DNA from: a virus
Lineage: Duplodnaviria > Heunggongvirae > Uroviricota > Caudoviricetes
IMG/VR virus record: IMGVR_UViG_2690316149_000019
Length of the DNA stretch: 33,563 bases
Strand: one strand, 5' to 3'
A program made the position numbers and the translations under genes. Shown here piece after piece: positions 5,971 through 33,563 of the stretch. The notes beneath the pieces were generated by a model. That model was not told the DNA's origin, ran no database searches, and worked only from the letters and a program-made list of their open reading frames with translations. The stretch's first letter is position 1, and the number at the start of each line of letters is the position of its first letter.

Positions 5971-6422
5971 TGGCAAAAATTCACGAGGTAAAGCTGCACG
6001 CAAAATATTTCGACCTTGTGCTGGAAGGAAAGAAACGCGCAGAGTTTCGGAAAAATGACCGTAATTATGAGCGCGGGGACACGTTGATTTTGCATGAATG
6101 GGTGCAGGGTGTGTATACGGGGCGAAAGGTTGAAGCCCGGATAACAGATGTTACTGACCTGTCAGACTGGCTGGAAGATTATGTCTTGCTAAGTATTGAG
6201 CTGCTTAATACAGGTGCATATGAGATTGTGAACTGGAAAGAACTTAGTGAGCGTGGTCTGGTATTCAGAATTAATCATGAAATTATGCATCAGCTCGGCC
6301 TTGCTGTTATGTATGAACCAGAGACGGGGATGTCTGGCGGGGCAATGGTTGCCACGGATGGAGCATGGAACTATTCAGATGAACAGATGGAGCGTGCACA
6401 GCAAAACGGGTGGCTTGGATAA
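5970..6422 (+). CDS. Accessory protein with N-terminal ASCH/DUF3850-like (PUA-fold) domain and unknown C-terminal half
   Basis: N-terminus MAKIHEVKLHAKYFDLVLEGKKRAEFRKNDRNYERGDTLILHEW resembles DUF3850/ASCH domains. Start overlaps the A stop (TAATG). Occupies the position where P2 carries orf91/tin/old. Confidence 0.6.
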   Translation: MAKIHEVKLHAKYFDLVLEGKKRAEFRKNDRNYERGDTLILHEWVQGVYTGRKVEARITDVTDLSDWLEDYVLLSIELLNTGAYEIVNWKELSERGLVFRINHEIMHQLGLAVMYEPETGMSGGAMVATDGAWNYSDEQMERAQQNGWLG

Positions 6423-6655
6423 TGCACAGAATGCCAGGCGAGATACCGCACCATAAAACTAAAAATATCAAGCTGATGGCTGTTGTTCACCGTCTACAGC
6501 AGATTATGGTCAACGAAAATCTGACGCCCGATGAGCTGGTCGGGTGTGCCGAAATAGTCCGGGATAATTACAGACGGTTTAACGATATCAGTAGACAGAA
6601 AAGTGAGACATTTCGGCCAGCTAACATGCCAAAACCACCACCACGCAGGCCGTAG
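6422..6655 (+). CDS. Small hypothetical protein
   Basis: 77-aa ORF, start overlapping the upstream stop (TAATG); proline- and basic-rich C-terminus, no recognisable domain. Could be spurious. Confidence 0.35.
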   Translation: MHRMPGEIPHHKTKNIKLMAVVHRLQQIMVNENLTPDELVGCAEIVRDNYRRFNDISRQKSETFRPANMPKPPPRRP

Positions 6656-6888
6656 AGAACCCCGCTATCCATGAAACTTGCTTTCAGGGAGGCGGGTTGA
6701 ATAAAAGTAGCTTTGCCGAAAAGTCTAACTATCTTGGTTTTTGCTGGTCCAAAGTTAATAAACAAACCTGCTTGTATGCAGCGGGTTTCCATATTGCCGT
6801 TTCGTATGCATGCCGCACCGTGCAAAGAGTATGAAAAATGTTATGGAAAAACGGGGATTAGTGTTATATTAATGGCTGAAAAGTGGTC

Positions 6889-6917
6889 TTGACACAGGTT
6901 GTTGTGTGTGGTAAGGC
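6889..6917 (+). promoter_or_regulatory. Candidate sigma70 promoter for the peptidase gene
   Basis: TTGACA at 6889-6894 followed 17 nt later by a weak -10 (TAAGGC); AGGAGG Shine-Dalgarno at 6944-6949 before ATG 6954. Confidence 0.3.
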
Positions 6918-6953
6918 TGTATCCCTTTGGCATTCAAAATGTAGGAGGCAACC

Positions 6954-7430
6954 ATGAGCATCGCAGCTAAAAATCTGCTTAATCGCTATTGGGATCGCCG
7001 ACTACCTGTCGATCCGTTTAAGCTCGCCGCAGCGTGGGGTGCAAGAGTGGAGCCGCTCAGGGAACCAGCGAATGGGTTAAGTGGTTCAGCCGTAATAGAA
7101 AATGGCATACCTTATATTTATTTTAACTCAAATGAACATTACAACCGCCAACGCTTTACTGTAGCGCATGAGCTCGGTCATCATGTTTTAGGGCATACTC
7201 AAGACGGAGAATATCATCGCGATATTGTAGGCAACTACTCAACTGGCATCCGTGATTATCGTGAAATAGAAGCTAACCAGTTTGCTGCAGAGCTATTGAT
7301 GCCGGAAGAGGCCATTCGTCAACTAGTGTCGCGTATAGGCGTTGATAGTACATTACGTTTGGCAAACATATTTAACGTTTCTGAGGCTGCTATGCACTGG
7401 CGTCTTAAAGCGTTGGGTATGGCTTACTAA
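6954..7430 (+). CDS. ImmA/IrrE-family (COG2856-like) zinc metallopeptidase
   Basis: HEXXH motif in FTVAHELGHHVLGH and a downstream glutamate-containing motif (EANQFAAELLMP). 158 aa with a strong AGGAGG ribosome-binding site. Confidence 0.75.
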   Translation: MSIAAKNLLNRYWDRRLPVDPFKLAAAWGARVEPLREPANGLSGSAVIENGIPYIYFNSNEHYNRQRFTVAHELGHHVLGHTQDGEYHRDIVGNYSTGIRDYREIEANQFAAELLMPEEAIRQLVSRIGVDSTLRLANIFNVSEAAMHWRLKALGMAY

Positions 7431-7460
7431 TACCCTCTTTAACTTTTTTCAAACCGGTTT

Positions 7461-7495
7461 AAAATCACCATTATTTTATTAATAATGGTGATTTT
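7461..7495. promoter_or_regulatory. Perfect 15-bp inverted repeat (aaaatcaccattatt / aataatggtgatttt, 5-nt loop) abutting the ATG of the membrane-protein gene
   Basis: Seen in sequence. Preceded by the 10-bp palindrome aaaccggttt (7451-7460) and followed by a T-run; the right arm contains the only Shine-Dalgarno-like element (GGTGA) for ATG 7498. Confidence 0.6.
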
Positions 7496-7497
7496 TT

Positions 7498-8118
7498 ATG
7501 GCAGATATCGACCTCTCTGGCCAATCTCCGGCTCAGTCTTCCCAGCCATCCAAAACTTCAACCTTTCCACATCCACCTAGCGATGCCGATCCAGATATTT
7601 TGTTACGTAGAGAAGTGCATGATGGCATGGAAAGGAGGGGAATGCGCTTAGTTTTGTCAGCCACCGTACTTTTTTTTGCCATAATGTTTTTATGGAAAGG
7701 TCTGTATTTCGCTCTCGAAGTCGGAAATGGTTTGCTTGCGGCTAAAAGTAGTATTGTTTCAGCGTTGGCACAAAATGATGAAAAGGTTGTTTGCGAACCT
7801 AAAACTAAATGTATTGAGCCTAAACAGCAGACAATGAAACCTACAGAAAAAACTCCCGGCATGTCAACAAAGGGTGATAGAGTAATGCCAAACTTATCTA
7901 CAGATTGGCTTTCTGCAAGTTCGCTAATTGCCATAGTCGCTTTCATCCTTGGTGTTGGCTTGACGTTAATCCTTACCCTACTTAAGTCCGCTTTTCATCA
8001 TCCGACTGATAAAAATCTCAATGAGCAAAAAACAACAGATGCGATTGAGTTGGCGACTCCCTTAAGTGAGTTAATCGCGGGTATTATTAATTATCTCAAG
8101 AGCAAATTTTCTAAATAA
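7498..8118 (+). CDS. Membrane protein of unknown function (two predicted transmembrane helices)
   Basis: 206 aa with hydrophobic stretches LVLSATVLFFAIMFLWKGLYFAL and LIAIVAFILGVGLTLILTLL and a Pro/Ser/Thr-rich N-terminus; lower GC than the phage core. Confidence 0.6.
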   Translation: MADIDLSGQSPAQSSQPSKTSTFPHPPSDADPDILLRREVHDGMERRGMRLVLSATVLFFAIMFLWKGLYFALEVGNGLLAAKSSIVSALAQNDEKVVCEPKTKCIEPKQQTMKPTEKTPGMSTKGDRVMPNLSTDWLSASSLIAIVAFILGVGLTLILTLLKSAFHHPTDKNLNEQKTTDAIELATPLSELIAGIINYLKSKFSK

Positions 8119-8327
8119 CGTCCTCTTGGTTATTTTTTAAATCAGCACCATTAGTGCCGGTTTTTTTATGCTGTTTTACTGTAATTTCCCTGTTTTTAAG
8201 CCGTGCATGCAGCAGGTGCATGGTTTTGCATGCGCAGGAAGTGTCCGTTCTGGCCGAGCACCGGCAGAACGGACGCGGATCCAGAACGGTCATGCAACTG
8301 CATTCAAACCACCCCATGAAGCGGGCG

Positions 8328-8346
8328 GGCGAGGCGGGGAAAGCAC
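8328..8346. other. cos: cos site (19-nt cohesive end sequence, P2-type)
   Basis: ggcgaggcggggaaagcac matches the P2 cohesive-end sequence as I recall it. It lies between the accessory locus and Q, where cos sits in P2, and a 10-bp stem-loop (8243-8274) is nearby. Confidence 0.7.
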
Positions 8347-8515
8347 TGCGCGCTGGCGGTGGTGCTGATTTTATTTTTTCAGCGTCTGAGCGCGTCGTGA
8401 TGGCGTTTAGATTGTGCGCCGGGGCGTTGGTGTGTCTGCGGGCTGTTTTGTGCGGTGGTGAGCGTGTGAGGGCGTGATGACGGGGGGTAAAAAAGCCGCC
8501 CGCAGGCGGCGATGT

Positions 8516-9550
8516 TCAGCCGTTGTCAGTGTCCAGTGAGTAGTTTTTAAAGCGGATGACCTCCTGACCGAGCCAGCCGTTTATCTCGCGGATCCTGTCC
8601 TGTAACGGGATAAGCTCATTGCGGACAAAGACCTTTGCCACTTTCTCAATATCACCCAGCGACCCGACGTTCTCCGGCTTGCCGCCCATCAACTGAAAGG
8701 GGATGCGGTGCGCGTCCAGCAGGTCAGCGGCGCTGGCTTTTTTGATATTAAAAAAATCGTCCTTCGTTGCCACTTCACTGAGCGGGATAATTTTAATGCC
8801 GTCGGCTTTCCCCTGCGGGGCATAGAGAAACAGATTTTTAAAGTTGTTGCGGCCTTTCGACTTGACCATGTTTTCGCGAAGCATTTCGATATCGTTGCGA
8901 TCCTGCACGGCATCGGTAACGTACATGATATATCCGGCATGAGCGCCGTTTTCGTAATACTTGCGGCGGAACAGCGTGGCCGACTCATTCAGCCAGGCAG
9001 AATTAAGGGCGCTGAGATATTCCGGCAGGCCGTACAGCTCCTGATTAATATCCGGCTCCAGCAGGTGAAACACGGAGCCGGGTGCGAAGGCTGTCGGCTC
9101 GTTGAAGGACGGCACCCACCAGTAAACATCCTCCTCCACACCTCGGCGGGTATATTTTGCCGGTGAGGTTTCCAGTCTGATGACCTTACCGGTGGTGCTG
9201 TAACGCTTTTCCAGAAACGCATTACCGAACACCAGAAAATCCAGCACAAAGCGGCTGAAATCCTGCTGGGAAAGCCACGGATGCGGGATAAATGTCGAGG
9301 CCAGAATATTACGTTTGACGTAAATCGGTGAGCTGTGATGCACGGCAGCACGCAGGCTTTTTGCCAGACCGGTAAAGCTGATCGGTGGCTCATACCATCT
9401 GCCGTTACTGATGCACTCGACGTAATCCAGAATGTCACGGCGGTCGAGTACCGGCACCGGCTCACCAAAGGTGAATGCTTCCATTTTCGGGGCGCTGGCG
9501 GTCATTGTTTTTGCCGCAGGTTGCGGTGTTTTCCCTTTTTTCTTGCTCAT
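8516..9550 (-). CDS. Q: Portal protein
   Basis: 344-aa ORF matching P2 gpQ in length and position; start overlaps the stop of P. Confidence 0.9.
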   Translation of the reverse strand: MSKKKGKTPQPAAKTMTASAPKMEAFTFGEPVPVLDRRDILDYVECISNGRWYEPPISFTGLAKSLRAAVHHSSPIYVKRNILASTFIPHPWLSQQDFSRFVLDFLVFGNAFLEKRYSTTGKVIRLETSPAKYTRRGVEEDVYWWVPSFNEPTAFAPGSVFHLLEPDINQELYGLPEYLSALNSAWLNESATLFRRKYYENGAHAGYIMYVTDAVQDRNDIEMLRENMVKSKGRNNFKNLFLYAPQGKADGIKIIPLSEVATKDDFFNIKKASAADLLDAHRIPFQLMGGKPENVGSLGDIEKVAKVFVRNELIPLQDRIREINGWLGQEVIRFKNYSLDTDNG

Positions 9551-11322
9551 CAGTAAAACTCCAGAATGGTGGATGTCAGCGGGGTGCTGATACCGGCGGT
9601 GAGTGGCTCATTTAACAGGGCGTGCATGGTCGCCCAGGCGAGGTCGGCGTGGCTGGCTTCCTCGCTGCGGCTGGCCTCATAGGTGGCGCTGCGTCCGCTG
9701 CTGGTCATGGTCTTGCGGATAGCCATAAACGAGCTGGTGATGTCGGTGGCGCTGACGTCATATTCCAGACAGCCACGGCGGATAACGTCTTTTGCCTTGA
9801 GCACCATTGCGGTTTTCATTTCCGGCGTGTAGCGGATGTCGCGCGCGGCGGGATAGAACGAGCGCACGAGCTGGAACACGCCGACACCGAGGCCGGTGGC
9901 ATCAATACCGATGTATTCAACGTTATATTTTTCGGTGAGTTTGCGGATGGATTCCGCCTGAGTGGCAAAGTCCATGCCTTTCCACTGGTGACGCTCAAGT
10001 ATTCTGAATTTGCCACCGGCCACCACCGGCGGTGCCAGCACCACGCATCCGGCGCTGTCGCCACGGTGTGACGGGTCGTAACCAATCCATACCGGGCGGG
10101 AGCCGAACGGATTGGCGGCAAACGGCGCATAGTCTTCCCATTCTTCCAGCGTGTCGACCATGCAGCGTTGCAGCTCCTCGAACGGGAACACCGACGCCTT
10201 GTCGTCAACAAATTCACACATGAACAGGTTTTTAAAATCGTCGGCGCTGTTTTCACGTTTGAGCTGCTCAATGTCGAACAGCGTGCAGCCACCTTTCAGG
10301 GCGTCCTCAATGGTGACAATCTGCCGCCACTGGCCGTCCGCACAGAGAAGCCCACCGGCAAGGGCGTTATGACTGACGTCGATTTCCACGCGTTCGGCGG
10401 CGCTGGCGCGTCCCCGGTTGAACAGTTCACCTGACCAGAACGGGTAGGCGTCGTGCGCCAGCGTGGACGGGGTGGAGAAATAGGTCGAACGCAGGTGACT
10501 CTGTGAGGCCATACCTGATGCCACCTTACGCAGTACCTGAAAATTCGGGATCCAGAAAATCTCGTCGACGTACAGGTCGCCGTTATGGCTCTGTGCGGTG
10601 TTGGAGTTGGTGCCGAGAAAAATTAGTTTTGCGCCGTTATTGCCCAGGACAATCGGGTCACCGGTCAGGTCAACGTCAACCAGACGGGCAAAGGCGATGA
10701 TGTATTCGCGGAACACATACGCCTGCGTTTTACTGGCCGACAGAAAAATCTGGTTATGGCCGGTTTTCAGGGCGCGCAGCAGCGCCTCGCGGGAAAAATA
10801 AAACGTTGCGCCAATCTGGCGGGATTTCAGTATATCGCGGATGCGGTGCTCAAGCCCGGCGCGATACCAGTGCAACTGATAGTCGAAAGACTGCTCAAAG
10901 AAAATCTGCTCCAGCTTTTCGATGGCTTCGTCACTGAAAAAATTCTTTTTCGGTTTGCGACGCCCGCCTTTGTTGCGGTTAGCGACGTTCGGATTAAGGT
11001 CTGCCTCGTTGCCGGTCTGACTGTAGCGGTTGACCCGCGCCAGTCGTTCAATCTGGCGTCCCAGCAGGTCAATTTCCTTGAAGTCACCGCCGGTTTTCTG
11101 CGGTTTGATGATGAGCTGGGTCAGCCGCGCTTCCAGGCTCATTTCGACACGGCTGATGGGGGCAACGCTGTCCCAGCCGTCGCGCTGTTTCCAGCTCTGC
11201 ACCGTCGGGCGTTTCATCTGCAACATGGCGGCAATCTGCGGCACGGAAAACCCCTGCCAGTACAGCAGCGCCGCCTGCCGACGCGGGTCGTGTAAAAGAG
11301 TGGTGTCTGTGGTGATGGTCAT
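9550..11322 (-). CDS. P: Terminase large subunit (ATPase)
   Basis: 590 aa from MTITTDTTLLHDPRRQAALLYWQGF, a P2 gpP-like N-terminus. The longer six-frame ORF (to 11352) is an upstream extension. Confidence 0.9.
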   Translation of the reverse strand: MTITTDTTLLHDPRRQAALLYWQGFSVPQIAAMLQMKRPTVQSWKQRDGWDSVAPISRVEMSLEARLTQLIIKPQKTGGDFKEIDLLGRQIERLARVNRYSQTGNEADLNPNVANRNKGGRRKPKKNFFSDEAIEKLEQIFFEQSFDYQLHWYRAGLEHRIRDILKSRQIGATFYFSREALLRALKTGHNQIFLSASKTQAYVFREYIIAFARLVDVDLTGDPIVLGNNGAKLIFLGTNSNTAQSHNGDLYVDEIFWIPNFQVLRKVASGMASQSHLRSTYFSTPSTLAHDAYPFWSGELFNRGRASAAERVEIDVSHNALAGGLLCADGQWRQIVTIEDALKGGCTLFDIEQLKRENSADDFKNLFMCEFVDDKASVFPFEELQRCMVDTLEEWEDYAPFAANPFGSRPVWIGYDPSHRGDSAGCVVLAPPVVAGGKFRILERHQWKGMDFATQAESIRKLTEKYNVEYIGIDATGLGVGVFQLVRSFYPAARDIRYTPEMKTAMVLKAKDVIRRGCLEYDVSATDITSSFMAIRKTMTSSGRSATYEASRSEEASHADLAWATMHALLNEPLTAGISTPLTSTILEFY

Positions 11323-11495
11323 GAATACCTCGCCGTGATGAATACACGGCAAGGCTACTGAGTCGCGCCCCGCGATTCGCTAAGGTGCTGTTGTGTCAGT
11401 GATAAGCCATCCGGGACTGATGGCGGAGGATGCGCATCGTCGGGAAACTGATGCCGACATGTGACTCCTCTAATCACTATTCAGGACTCCTGACA

Positions 11496-13481: not shown

Positions 13482-14225
13482 ATGACGAGTCCCGCACAGC
13501 GCCACATGATGCGGGTCTCGGCAGCGATGACCGCGCAGCGGGACGCCGCCCCGCTGCGACATGCAACTGTCTATGAGCAGATGCTGGTTAAGCTGGCCGC
13601 AGACCAGCGCACACTGAAAGCGATTTATTCAAAAGAGCTGAAGGCCGCGAAAAAGCGCGAACTGCTGCCGTTCTGGTTGCCGTGGGTGAACGGTGTGCTG
13701 GAGCAGGGCAAAGGCGCACAGGATGACATTCTGATGACGGTCATGCTGTGGCGTCTGGATACCGGCGATATTGCCGGTGCGCTGGAGATTGCCCGTTATG
13801 CCCTGAAGTACGGTCTGACCATGCCGGGTAAACACCGCCGTACCCCGCCGTACATGTTCACCGAGGAAGTGGCTCTCGCGGCCATGCGCGCTCACGCTGC
13901 CGGTGAGTCTGTGGATCCCCGCCTGCTGACGGACACCCTTGAACTGACCGCCACGGCTGACATGCCTGATGAAGTGCGCGCAAAGCTGCACAAAATCACC
14001 GGTCTGTTTCTGCGTGACGCTGGTGATGCCGCAGGGGCGCTGGCACACCTGCAACGTGCGACACAGCTCGACTGTCAGGCAGGCGTCAAAAAAGAGATTG
14101 AACGACTGGAGCGGGAGCTGAAACCGAAGCCGGAGCCGCAGCCCAAAGCGGCCACCCGCGCCCCGCGTAAGACCCGGAGCGTGACACCGGCAAAACGTGG
14201 ACGCCCGAAAAAGAAAGCCAGTTAA
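13482..14225 (+). CDS. M: Terminase small (endonuclease) subunit
   Basis: 247 aa with a basic C-terminal tail, as in P2 gpM. Confidence 0.88.
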   Translation: MTSPAQRHMMRVSAAMTAQRDAAPLRHATVYEQMLVKLAADQRTLKAIYSKELKAAKKRELLPFWLPWVNGVLEQGKGAQDDILMTVMLWRLDTGDIAGALEIARYALKYGLTMPGKHRRTPPYMFTEEVALAAMRAHAAGESVDPRLLTDTLELTATADMPDEVRAKLHKITGLFLRDAGDAAGALAHLQRATQLDCQAGVKKEIERLERELKPKPEPQPKAATRAPRKTRSVTPAKRGRPKKKAS

Positions 14226-17763: not shown

Positions 17764-18549
17764 TTATGAGTGATTTTTATTTGATGCTTTGTATTCTAAA
17801 ACCTTCTTATTGGCGTAAAAGAATTTTGTATATGACAGGAATATAACCAGACCTGAAGTGAAATAGACGAGGGATAGTATTAATAATGCTTTTTTGTGAC
17901 TGTTATTATCTTTAATCTCCTGGCTTAACCATTCGGAGTCCTCCTCGTTTAGCTGTAAGAGCTTATTGCAGGCGATTTCAGGAAGTGTGTCTTTTATAAA
18001 TACGTTTTGCAGTCTCTTGCAATCGGCAAGGCTATAAGTTTTATTAAATTCAACTGCTTTATTTTTGAAGGATAAAAGAACTTTGTCACTATAAACATAG
18101 TACATCATATTTTTATATGGTATGCCTATGGCATCTCTTACTATAGCGGATTGTTTGTTGTGTATATAACATGCGAAGAGAATATAAATAATACTGGCCA
18201 GAATTACAATTATTGTTTTAATTATGTGTGGTGGTTTTGTTATGTCACCCCAGATGCGAGTAAGGAAAAAATACGATGTTTTTAGTTTTCCATCAATCAG
18301 TCCCTGCTGTATCATTCTCACATTTTCAATGCCTGATACATTGATTCCGTTAATTATTTTAAATAGTTGAATGTCGCGCCACTCGCGGTCAAGTCTTTTT
18401 AATTTTTTGTCTGAATATCCAAAATTGAAATAATGTGCAATAAGCCTCATAAGGTTACTTTTACCAAAGCTAAAAAATGCTAATACTGCAAAGCTACAAA
18501 GGAAAAAAACGATTAGCCCCCACACATTAGTCACATTATAGCTGACCAT
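17764..18549 (-). CDS. AT-rich moron: membrane protein of unknown function (P2 orf30 position)
   Basis: 261 aa with three hydrophobic helices (N-terminal, central, C-terminal), Lys/Asn/Ile/Tyr-rich. Much lower GC than the flanking tail genes and transcribed against the late operon. Confidence 0.7.
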   Translation of the reverse strand: MVSYNVTNVWGLIVFFLCSFAVLAFFSFGKSNLMRLIAHYFNFGYSDKKLKRLDREWRDIQLFKIINGINVSGIENVRMIQQGLIDGKLKTSYFFLTRIWGDITKPPHIIKTIIVILASIIYILFACYIHNKQSAIVRDAIGIPYKNMMYYVYSDKVLLSFKNKAVEFNKTYSLADCKRLQNVFIKDTLPEIACNKLLQLNEEDSEWLSQEIKDNNSHKKALLILSLVYFTSGLVIFLSYTKFFYANKKVLEYKASNKNHS

Positions 18550-18632
18550 TACGCTCTCCTTGAATGTTGTCTGGTAGTTCTACAAATGAATCCAGATAGC
18601 ATAACTTTTATATATTGTGCAATCTCACATGC

Positions 18633-19268
18633 ATGAACACTCTCGCAAATATTCAGGAACTCGCGCGCGCACTGCGCAACATGATTCGCACCGGCATTAT
18701 CGTCGAAACCGACCTTAACGCCGGTCGCTGCCGCGTGCAGACCGGCGGCATGTGCACCGACTGGCTTCAGTGGCTGACCCATCGTGCCGGGCGTTCGCGC
18801 ACATGGTGGGCACCTTCCGTGGGGGAACAGGTGCTGATTCTGGCCGTGGGCGGTGAACTCGACACGGCGTTCGTTCTGCCGGGGATTTATTCCGGCGATA
18901 ACCCTGCGCCGTCTGCGTCGGCTGATGCCCTGCATATCCGTTTCCCTGACGGGGCGGTGATTGAGTATGAACCCGAAACCAGTGCACTCACGGTAAGCGG
19001 AATTAAAACGGCCAGCGTGACGGCTTCTGATTCTGTTACTGCCACGGTACCGGTGGTCACGGTGAAAGCGTCAACCCGTGTCACCCTGGACACACCAGAA
19101 GTGGTCTGCACTAACAAACTGACTACCGGCACGCTGGAAGTGCAGAAGGGCGGGACGATGCGCGGCAACATTGAACACACCGGCGGTGAACTCTCATCAA
19201 ACGGTAAGGTACTGCATACCCATAAACACCCCGGCGACAGCGGCGGCACAACCGGGAGTCCTTTATGA
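18633..19268 (+). CDS. V: Baseplate spike protein
   Basis: 211 aa from MNTLANIQELARALRNMIRTG, matching P2 gpV. Confidence 0.88.
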   Translation: MNTLANIQELARALRNMIRTGIIVETDLNAGRCRVQTGGMCTDWLQWLTHRAGRSRTWWAPSVGEQVLILAVGGELDTAFVLPGIYSGDNPAPSASADALHIRFPDGAVIEYEPETSALTVSGIKTASVTASDSVTATVPVVTVKASTRVTLDTPEVVCTNKLTTGTLEVQKGGTMRGNIEHTGGELSSNGKVLHTHKHPGDSGGTTGSPL

Positions 19269-24178: not shown

Positions 24179-25225
24179 GTGATATTTTCTACAAAGAAAA
24201 ATATATGGAATAACGTCATCGCGGGTACAAAAATGACTATAAAAAAAACATATGTAACACCAACAGAAATAGTGAAATATTTTTATGACAAACCGGAAAA
24301 CGATAACGTAAAAGAGAGAAAAACAATTGAGAGCCTGACCCGTCTCAAACCTGAGTGGGAAAATACTCTCGATATGATGAAGTTAATACGCAATTGTGAA
24401 AAGCTAGCAACTGAAGGTATTTTAATGGAATTATCTTCAGGACATACTCTTTTGGACCGTTGCTATTTCGCACCGAATTTCAATGAATCAGATGCGAAAT
24501 ATGGAAAGTATGATTTTATAGCTGATGGATTTGAGTCAATCATAGACCGCCTTAGTCCTTCCGTTTTACCTGTTGTTGTTGAAAAAAGTGATGGTTCACA
24601 TGATCTTGGTACTAGTTTTATTGTTGGGAATAACCACACGATATTTACAGCCAGACATGTTATTGAAGACATGAAGAGTATCAGGATACTTAGAGCTGGT
24701 GGTGAGGCTTTACCAATACATAAAATCTTTGTATCTAACGATGAACGTATTGATATCGCTTTAGTTTTCACAACCATTCCGAATGAAGATAATATTCAAC
24801 CACTTAAGGTCTCAACCAAAGCCTCGGTACTGGATGAAATTTTATCAATAGGATTTCCACCCATTCCAGGATTTGATGCATTAAAGTTATATGACGTTTC
24901 GCATATAAATTCGTTTGTCCGACTGTCAAAGGGGCGAATTGTTGGTTCTGGTCACTCTTACTTAGATTCACAAGACTTTTTATTATTCAATGCTAGGGTT
25001 AAGGGGGGGAATAGCGGTGGCCCTATAATTAACAAATACGGCTTTGTTGTTGGTATGCTTGTACAAATACCAATATCATCTGAGGACAGTTCAAAGATTG
25101 ATAACCTTGGATATGGTATAGCTGTAACAGGAAAAAGCCTGCTGGATGCCATTACATTTACAGAAAATGGCCGCGAATTAACACTCACCGACCGAGGAAA
25201 TGGAGAATATTCAACTCTAGCATAA
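24179..25225 (+). CDS. AT-rich moron: trypsin-like (S1/chymotrypsin-fold) serine protease with an unknown N-terminal domain of about 140 aa
   Basis: Catalytic triad context in order: TARHVIED (His), ERIDIALVF (Asp), GGNSGGPII (GxSGG Ser). The annotated start is a GTG; an in-frame ATG at 24233 is an alternative. Occupies the P2 Z/fun position between G and FI. Confidence 0.75.
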   Translation: MIFSTKKNIWNNVIAGTKMTIKKTYVTPTEIVKYFYDKPENDNVKERKTIESLTRLKPEWENTLDMMKLIRNCEKLATEGILMELSSGHTLLDRCYFAPNFNESDAKYGKYDFIADGFESIIDRLSPSVLPVVVEKSDGSHDLGTSFIVGNNHTIFTARHVIEDMKSIRILRAGGEALPIHKIFVSNDERIDIALVFTTIPNEDNIQPLKVSTKASVLDEILSIGFPPIPGFDALKLYDVSHINSFVRLSKGRIVGSGHSYLDSQDFLLFNARVKGGNSGGPIINKYGFVVGMLVQIPISSEDSSKIDNLGYGIAVTGKSLLDAITFTENGRELTLTDRGNGEYSTLA

Positions 25226-32535: not shown

Positions 32536-32582
32536 GACACCATCCCTGTCTTCCCCCACATGATGTGGGGTTTTTTTTTATC
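32536..32582. repeat. attR: attR core: 47-bp direct repeat of 24-70
   Basis: 46 of 47 positions identical to the attL copy; includes the same terminator-like hairpin and T-tract. Confidence 0.85.
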
Positions 32583-32660
32583 CTCAATTTGCCTGCTGCT
32601 TAATGCATTGCAGATGATTTGCTTCCGTTATACTAGCGTCAGTTGATAGCGGGAGTATTT

Positions 32661-33563
32661 ATGAATCAATCTTATGGACGGCTGGTCAGTCGGGCGGCGA
32701 TTGCTGCGACGGCGATGGCTTCGTTGCTATTGCTGATTAAAATTTTTGCATGGTGGTATACCGGGTCGGTGAGTATTCTCGCCGCGCTGGTGGATTCGCT
32801 GGTGGATATCGGCGCGTCGTTGACGAATTTATTGGTGGTGCGATATTCCCTGCAACCTGCCGACGATAATCACTCGTTTGGTCACGGTAAAGCTGAGTCC
32901 CTCGCGGCGCTGGCGCAAAGTATGTTTATCTCCGGTTCGGCACTATTCCTGTTTTTGACGGGTATTCAACATCTGATATCTCCAACACCGATGACAGATC
33001 CAGGCGTCGGGGTTATCGTGACAATTGTGGCGCTAATTTGTACGATTATCCTTGTCTCGTTTCAGCGTTGGGTGGTGCGGCGGACGCAAAGCCAGGCGGT
33101 GCGGGCTGATATGCTACATTACCAGTCTGATGTTATGATGAACGGCGCAATTCTGCTGGCGCTGGGGTTGTCCTGGTACGGCTGGCATCGCGCCGATGCT
33201 CTGTTTGCATTGGGAATCGGCATCTATATTTTATATAGCGCGTTACGCATGGGATATGAGGCGGTACAGTCATTACTGGATCGCGCATTGCCTGATGAGG
33301 AACGGCAAGAAATTATTGATATCGTGACTTCCTGGCCGGGTGTTAGCGGCGCTCACGATCTTCGCACGCGGCAGTCAGGGCCGACCCGCTTTATTCAGAT
33401 TCATTTGGAAATGGAAGACTCTCTGCCTTTGGTTCAGGCACATATGGTGGCGGATCAGGTAGAGCAGGCTATTTTACGGCGTTTTCCGGGATCGGATGTA
33501 ATTATCCATCAGGACCCCTGTTCCGTCGTACCCAGGGAGGGTAAACGGTCTATGCTTTCATAA
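32661..33563 (+). CDS. fieF: Cation diffusion facilitator FieF (ferrous-iron/zinc efflux), host gene
   Basis: 300 aa from [54 protein letters not shown], recognised as enterobacterial FieF/YiiP. The stop codon is the last triplet of the window. Confidence 0.9.

Follow-up and report, generated by a model that had tools for sequence, protein, structure and literature searches.

A non-coding P2-type cos region with a rare spacer hairpin in an integrated P2-like prophage

The stretch of DNA analyzed here (33,563 nt, called the window, with positions counted from its first letter) shares ~96% identity with Peduovirus genomes across the greater part of its sequence. It carries a complete prophage bounded by 35-bp att direct repeats at 24-58 and 32536-32570. 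The gene order begins with int, C, cox, B, A, a DUF3850 gene resembling P2 orf91, cargo genes, and a non-coding gap at 8119-8515. After the gap come Q and P on the minus strand, then O, N, M, L, the lysis and tail genes, D, ogr, and a host cation-efflux gene. The structural, terminase, lysis, and regulatory ORFs are all full length. The large terminase gpP retains its full set of Pfam domains, including the N-terminal HTH, and gpM is identical to P2 gpM at 242 of 247 residues (98%). Prophages that carry a C repressor of the P2 type are not known to be induced by the SOS response. The gap is 397 bp long, is flanked by the last of the cargo genes and by the portal gene Q, and contains a cohesive end that is located between gpA/cargo and Q, beside tQ, in an att-bounded prophage with the P2 gene order. 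At the prophage ends, the att repeat GACACCATCCCTGTCTTCCCCCACATGATGTGGGG marks attL and attR and gives a prophage of ~32.5 kb; a fieF-like host cation-efflux gene (32643-33563) adjoins it, and an exact IHF consensus is present at 67-79.

A direct read of the window gives ggcgaggcggggaaagcac as the 19 nt at 8328-8346. This 19-mer is the sole match in the 33,563-nt window even when three mismatches are allowed, and none was found in 100 shuffled sequences. It is G+C-rich and fits the pattern GGCG(A/T)GGCGGGGAAAGCA(C/T) of the P2 family (Peduoviridae and P4). The cohesive ends of P2 were reportedly the subject of work by Padmanabhan et al. in 1974. The initial annotation had proposed a match to the P2 cohesive end at this place, and the comparison bears this out base for base: the segment is identical to the annotated cosL (1-19) and cosR (33575-33593) of P2 (NC_001895), and the P2 cohesive end quoted in PMC3931495 is the same 19-mer. 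Judging from the P2 and 186 annotations, the top strand would be nicked at 8327/8328 and the bottom strand at 8346/8347, producing 5' overhangs. The features of the region are collected in Table 1.

Table 1. Features of the cos region and of the adjoining packaging genes (window coordinates)
Feature	Position	Strand	Basis or remark
Weakened remnant of a 186 t95b-type terminator	8145..8167	+	aligns with the t95b annotated in 186 and with a 186-like prophage of E. coli E21
TGCAT box array, candidate terminase recognition element	8203..8234	+	fixed offsets across loci
Spacer, fixed length of ~56-57 bp, variable sequence	8235..8291	+	ungapped stack keeps boxes in register
Perfect 10-bp inverted repeat, 12-nt loop, centre -69.5	8243..8274	.	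inverted-repeat search and folding
Third arm copy CCAGAACGGTC	8281..8291	+	repeats the 3' arm in direct orientation and complements the 5' arm
55-bp conserved cos core (-36 to +19)	8292..8346	+	identity to P2, P4, and 186
19-nt cohesive end (lambda cosN equivalent)	8328..8346	+	identical to NC_001895 cosL/cosR, unique in the window
TGCGCGC abutting the cohesive end on its right (+20 to +26)	8347..8353	+	at least 103 of 107 loci identical per position
Terminator-like hairpin and T-rich run just right of cos	8350..8379	+	terminator scan; conserved in P2
tQ, intrinsic terminator of the P-Q operon	8495..8510	-	terminator scan; matches the annotated P2 tQ
Portal gene Q	8516-9550	-	Pfam Phage_portal; transcribed toward cos
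Large terminase gene P	9550-11352	-	Pfam Terminase_5/HTH_23, Terminase_6N, Terminase_6C; transcribed toward cos
Small terminase gene M	13482..14225	+	Pfam Phage_term_smal; trans-acting partner of cos

The cohesive end forms the right part of a longer conserved core, which holds TGCA boxes at 8293 and 8299, an A-tract, and a GC-rich CCNC...GCGG segment. The core of the window is identical to that of P2 at 48 of 55 positions, to that of P4 at 49, and to that of 186 at 47 (85-89%). Related loci were gathered in two sets, 120 from IMG/VR by the 19-mer pattern and 72 from GTDB species representatives by the core pattern, and were stacked without gaps on the nick position. The core is nearly invariant among 107 IMG/VR loci, and in the stack the near-invariant positions run from -37 to +26. 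In the E. coli collection, 2,156 of 5,426 complete genomes contain the core. PMC5694545, PMC3931495, and PMC9594776 cite Ziermann & Calendar 1990 for a 55-bp core, regarded in the literature as the conserved cos of the P2 family. The flank right of the core is collinear with P2 1-187 up to the tQ terminator and the Q stop codon, with a few substitutions and two 1-bp indels. The left end of P4 diverges beyond +26 (8353), and P4 homology is absent further right. The left flank, on the other side, shares homology with 186 and P4 at their right ends.

Terminator-like sequences stand on both sides of the site. The t95b-like remnant reads GCAC-CATTA-GTGC, followed by CGG and seven T, and delimits the cargo on the right; with a stem of only 4 bp, it escaped the terminator scan. 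The terminator-like hairpin just right of cos may prevent rightward transcripts from reading into Q in antisense. A perfect 12-nt inverted repeat, AAATCAGCACCA at 8139-8150 and TGGTGCTGATTT at 8360-8371, brackets cos with 209 bp between its arms, and it links the mutated 5' arm of the t95b-like terminator with the P2-type right flank. This repeat was considered as a feature of cos in the family and was rejected, being unique to the lineage of the window among ~190 loci.

Left of the core, the stacked loci revealed a regular array of short boxes. In the window, TGCA occurs at 8204 and 8208 (-124 and -120), at 8217 (-111), and at 8227 (-101), with a phasing of ~10 bp. Across the loci, TGCA is found at -124 or -121, at -111, and at -101, as TTGCATnA-like direct repeats ~10 bp apart. 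Its frequency at the exact offset is 42-69% of loci, against a background of 0.9% per position, and ~80% of the 178 unique loci have TGCA within 1 bp of -111 and of -101. TGCAT boxes are present in P2, 186, the satellite P4, and prophages of many Enterobacterales genera, and they are kept even where the adjacent spacer is just 30% identical, which is the random level. Because P4 shares almost nothing with its helper beyond what the helper terminase must recognize, the boxes are good candidates for terminase recognition elements. The spacer between the boxes and the core varies in sequence: that of the window is 66% identical to the spacer of 186 and 30% to that of P2. A dyad is frequent in this spacer across the loci. 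Among 164 unique spacers, 36 have their best perfect stem (6 bp or longer) centred at -59.5, compared with 0.6 predicted by shuffling, and the sequences of these stems are diverse. Family-wide complementarity also peaks at -59.5 (47.5%, compared with 39.5% from column composition and ~25% at other centres), with a secondary peak at -69.5, the centre of the hairpin in the window.

Taken by analogy with P2 and 186, these elements suggest how the site would work. After excision and replication, the terminase (gpM and gpP) would act on the circular genome, where it would recognize the cos core together with its left flank. It would then nick the two strands 19 nt apart, at the positions given above, leaving 5'-protruding virion ends on a chromosome that would have Q at its left end and the cargo genes at its right. 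The comparative data across ~180 related loci suggest that the recognized region would exceed the 19-mer and include three phased TGCAT boxes, the spacer of fixed length, and the 55-bp core; the box array, the spacer length, and the core are all kept by the satellite P4, which depends on the terminase of its helper for packaging. Longer cos flanks raised cosmid transduction more than 1000-fold (PMC9594776). As the boxes are conserved even in a satellite, cos cassettes cut down to the 55-bp core probably lack some recognition elements, in keeping with that result. The comparison is of modest practical interest to designers of P2/P4 cosmids.

The site also sets the right edge of a cos-proximal cargo hotspot. 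Depending on the relative compared, other P2- and 186-like elements become homologous from ~8140-8215 onward, and the DNA from the orf91-like gene to that point is lineage-specific cargo. The proposal of the initial annotation that the region separates accessory cargo from the packaging genes thus agrees with the comparison, and the boundary fits the gpA-to-gpQ hotspot beside cos described in PMC9122126. Since the site determines both the ends of the virion chromosome and this edge, its position is useful for annotation and for delimiting cargo. The cargo module in the hotspot (6410-8118) comprises three genes: an ORF of 81 aa at 6410-6655 (phrog_11386), a gene at 6954-7430 for an ImmA/IrrE M78 metallopeptidase that matches the PADLOC models CapP and RmrA, and a gene of 206 aa at 7498-8118 (phrog_8096) without a Pfam domain. 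The module may be a small defence or regulatory system. Upstream of the 206-aa gene, a perfect 15-bp inverted repeat with a 5-nt gap (AAAATCACCATTATT and AATAATGGTGATTTT, 7461-7495) overlaps the sole promoter-like site and has the look of an operator. Two further cargo slots are occupied, one on the minus strand by a pair of ORFs between the tail genes S and V (17764-18935), the other by a plus-strand ORF of 348 aa (24179-25225) that takes the Z/fun position, with G and FI as its neighbours.

In the spacer of the window lies a hairpin whose arms, 8243-8252 (gtccgttctg) and 8265-8274 (cagaacggac), are 100% complementary. In the predicted fold, which spans 8241-8276, G-T and G-C pairs lengthen the stem outward and an inner stem of 3 bp narrows the loop. 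Folded as single-stranded DNA, the hairpin has a predicted energy of -15.8 kcal/mol (z = -4.8), and none of 200 shuffled sequences was as stable. It had been noted earlier as a hairpin ~60 bp upstream of the cohesive end, and the coordinates given then are exact; its 3' end is 54 bp and its centre 69.5 bp from the top-strand nick. By our own arithmetic, ~0.015 perfect 10-bp inverted repeats with loops of up to 40 nt are expected per 396 bp and ~1.3 per window. Five are present in the window, so the hairpin alone is just mildly to moderately unusual. What gives it weight is the third arm copy, along with a conserved quasi-palindrome at the same place in relatives; within the window, the arm motif occurs nowhere else even when one mismatch is allowed. 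Of 5,426 complete E. coli genomes, 2 have the exact allele and 321 have related spacers, and comparison with NC_001895 found no dyad in the P2 spacer. The original description of a cos with an adjacent stem-loop stands, with the qualification that the stem-loop does not belong to the conserved parts of P2-family cos sites: it is a rare allele of a variable spacer. No match to the IHF consensus WATCAANNNNTTR with up to one mismatch was found in 8120-8515.

The comparison with relatives points to the origin of this allele. The hairpin is the perfected form of a weaker 186-type quasi-palindrome, TGCCCGTTCTGG...CCAGAGCTGGCG, which is centred at -69.5 and is accompanied in the relatives by a further partial copy, CCAGAGTGG. 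Among 24 relatives, 83% of the pair cells are complementary, compared with 28-46% in slid registers. However, 374 of 500 column shuffles pair as well as the real alignment, and the covariation score is not elevated in these 24. As the column shuffles do equally well, the thing conserved is the quasi-palindromic sequence rather than a structure kept by compensation. Relative to the 186-type consensus, the three arms of the window carry seven substitutions, all of which keep or raise complementarity. A double change replaces C:G by T:A, three changes mend a mismatch, a wobble pair, or an unpaired position at the loop edge, and two bring the third copy into agreement. The same changes degrade the commoner dyad at -59.5, of which 5 of 10 pairs remain. 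In one other lineage (L013), a perfect 13-bp stem of different sequence is located at the same place, and plaque-forming relatives such as vB_YpM_22 have weak versions of the dyad.

For packaging, the hairpin is most likely dispensable and would be at most an accessory dyad, either protein-binding or cruciform-prone. An essential role is argued against by the absence of the dyad from P2, the weak versions in plaque-forming phages, the rarity of the allele, and the degraded dyad at -59.5. Template-switch correction of quasi-palindromes is an established mutational process, and the hairpin may be a mere product of such "palindrome correction". That one arm was copied from the other during replication, leaving a perfect hairpin as a neutral by-product without function, is a quite plausible reading, although we stop short of calling it probable. 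The ancestral 186-type arrangement, an imperfect inverted repeat with a partial copy, would supply the substrate; the changes are clustered and multi-base, each matching arms 2 and 3 to the reverse complement of arm 1. The rarity of the allele, the different sequence perfected in the other lineage, and the lack of family-wide covariation are also in its favour. However, the pattern of the seven changes is expected equally from quasi-palindrome template switching and from selection for a dyad, two processes that sequence alone cannot tell apart, and the family-wide enrichment of dyads at -59.5 argues for some constraint on the spacer. The substitutions that raise complementarity, together with this enrichment across lineages, could mean that the dyad is selected and not dispensable.

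On another reading, which we consider possible but doubtful, the hairpin and the three CCAGAACGG copies would form a functional accessory element of cos that tunes packaging efficiency. These could be sites for gpM, for the N-terminal HTH of gpP, or for another dimeric protein; alternatively, the hairpin could extrude as a cruciform, restricted to supercoiled circular monomers, the preferred packaging substrate of P2 and P4 (PMC2231350). Several observations are consistent with such an element. The three near-identical copies are confined to the hairpin spot, all arm substitutions raise complementarity against the 186-type consensus, and the L013 stem was perfected independently at the same position. 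The dyads at -59.5 and the secondary peak at -69.5 recur across the family, P4-like satellites also keep a spacer dyad, and the effect of longer flanks on cosmid transduction (PMC9594776) would fit as well. On the other hand, P2 packages well without such a dyad, using a gpM that is 98% identical, and there is no covariation beyond sequence conservation. Moreover, plaque-forming relatives such as vB_YpM_22 have just weak versions, and the variant in the window destroys the commoner dyad at -59.5.

A broader proposal, which we regard as unlikely, is that the cos of P2, 186, and P4 has a recognition architecture beyond the 55-bp core, made up of the three helically phased boxes, the spacer of fixed length, and a dyad conserved in position (-59.5, or -69.5 in the window, a helical turn further upstream) but free in sequence, with the dyad aiding terminase on supercoiled circular monomers. 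If this were true, the dyad would be a structural signal, either a cruciform or a symmetric protein site, and the hairpin of the window with its three identical arm copies would be a strengthened and re-phased version of that signal.

The possibility that the site is a decaying relic, from which the prophage no longer packages because of rare core substitutions and a rearranged spacer, appears improbable. The core has two rare bases at near-invariant positions, C at 8305 (-23; 1 of 107 loci) and A at 8311 (-17; 3 of 107), where conservation is at least 93%. A copy of 8120-8515 that is 100% identical is present in E. coli OHT76-1 (NZ_CP135244, L203), in which Q through L are deleted, the lysis genes directly follow the cos region, IS21 is nearby, and gene A is annotated as partial. 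The rare core bases, the degraded dyad at -59.5, and the identical copy in a degraded prophage make a weakened or dead cos conceivable. OHT76-1 carries a degraded sibling prophage whose state is unlike that of the window; that the two represent the same prophage state is ruled out by the Q-to-L deletion. In the window itself, the full-length structural, terminase, lysis, and regulatory ORFs and the intact att repeats speak against a relic. The 19-mer and 12 bases on either side of it match the consensus, and a few other loci also have A at -17.

A role of the hairpin as a terminator or insulator, keeping cargo transcripts from running through cos into the antisense strand of Q, is very unlikely. 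In its favour are the plus-strand orientation of the cargo genes upstream, the weakened t95b-like terminator, and the several terminator-like elements that flank cos. However, the terminator scan does not call the hairpin, and neither strand has a T- or U-run behind it (after 8274, or after 8243 on the minus strand). As a stem without a T-run on either strand, it was ruled out as an intrinsic terminator. Better terminator-like sites are available at 8206-8222 and 8350-8365. An Rfam search gave no match at the gathering threshold across the window, and in 8050-8600 it gave chance-level hits only (E of at least 1.4).

Several ORFs cross the region, including 8111-8317 (-), 8154-8477 (+), and 8168-8368 (+), which were judged almost certainly non-coding at the outset. 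This judgement is upheld by the searches and comparisons. Pfam searches gave no match for the ORFs across the cos gap, the 1-bp indels relative to P2 fall inside the longest of them (8154-8477), and the reference annotations of P2 and 186 place no CDS across the cos region. A further ORF of 61 codons starting at 8292 is open only because of the rare A-to-C change at 8305, which turns TAA into TCA; 103 of 107 loci read ATG CAA CTG CAT TAA at 8292 and stop after four codons. The ORFs in 8111-8477 match phrog_17350, phrog_28685, and phrog_17882, with E-values from 6e-39 to 7e-7. These families appear to have been built from over-annotated non-coding cos DNA, given the P2 indels, the lost stop at 8305, and the reference annotations. 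That one of the ORFs, for example 8154-8477 with its match to phrog_17350, encodes a real small protein is hardly credible despite these E-values and the hypothetical proteins that some phage records annotate here, as the indels, the conserved stop, and the Pfam and reference results all oppose it and the pattern of conservation is that of a DNA site.

In sum, the region is recognized as the cos of a P2-like prophage on four counts: the identity of the 19-mer, the flanks, the non-coding nature of the ORFs, and the cargo boundary. We are highly confident in reading 8140-8515 as the non-coding cos of a complete, integrated P2-like (Peduovirus) prophage, with a hairpin in its spacer that is rare, derived, and likely dispensable. 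The feature is ordinary and already known, a textbook P2-type cos that the initial annotation rightly recognized. Only the phased boxes and the dyad conserved in position might extend present knowledge, and both concern the whole family and not this locus.

Considering known systems, the closest is P2 (NC_001895). Besides the identical cohesive end, the cores agree at the level given above, positions +20 to +60 are 95% identical, and the tQ terminator and the placement relative to Q and P are the same, as is gpM to 98%. P2 differs in its spacer, which from -93 to -37 is unrelated (30%) and is occupied by the old promoter region; it has neither the hairpin nor the -59.5 dyad. It also lacks the second TGCA box of the core, reading ATTAAGGTGCAT where the window reads ATGCAACTGCAT. 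Phage 186 (NC_001317) and the 186-like prophages share the homologous left flank from t95b onward (box array 32/34, spacer 66%) and the imperfect repeat TGCCCGTTCTGG...CCAGAGCTGGCG with its third copy CCAGAGTGG. In contrast, 2 of the 19 positions in the cohesive end of 186 are different (GGCGTGG...CAT), and its right flank has diverged. In 186 the repeat has mismatches and CGCCAG-AG-CTGGCG, at -59.5, dominates among the dyads, whereas the window has a perfected repeat centred at -69.5. P4 (NC_001609) has the identical 19-mer, a box array matching at 28 of 34 positions, and a spacer of equal length, in addition to the core identity of 49/55; unlike the window, it has a spacer dyad ACCGCGCC-ATTCCC-GGCGCGGT at -59.5 and no homology right of +26.

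The cos of lambda (cosQ-cosN-cosB, with R sites and the IHF site I1) is alike in plan. Both have a nicking site with 5' cohesive ends and one flank with repeated short motifs that probably recruit terminase; the phased TGCAT boxes and the three CCAGAACGG copies are repeats that may be counterparts of the small-terminase binding sites that characterize a lambda-type cosB. The two sites share no sequence homology. The ends are 12 nt long in lambda compared with 19 nt in the P2 family, and lambda has IHF site I1 where 8120-8515 of the window has no IHF consensus. The substrate also differs: unlike lambda, the P2 family packages circular monomers (PMC2231350).
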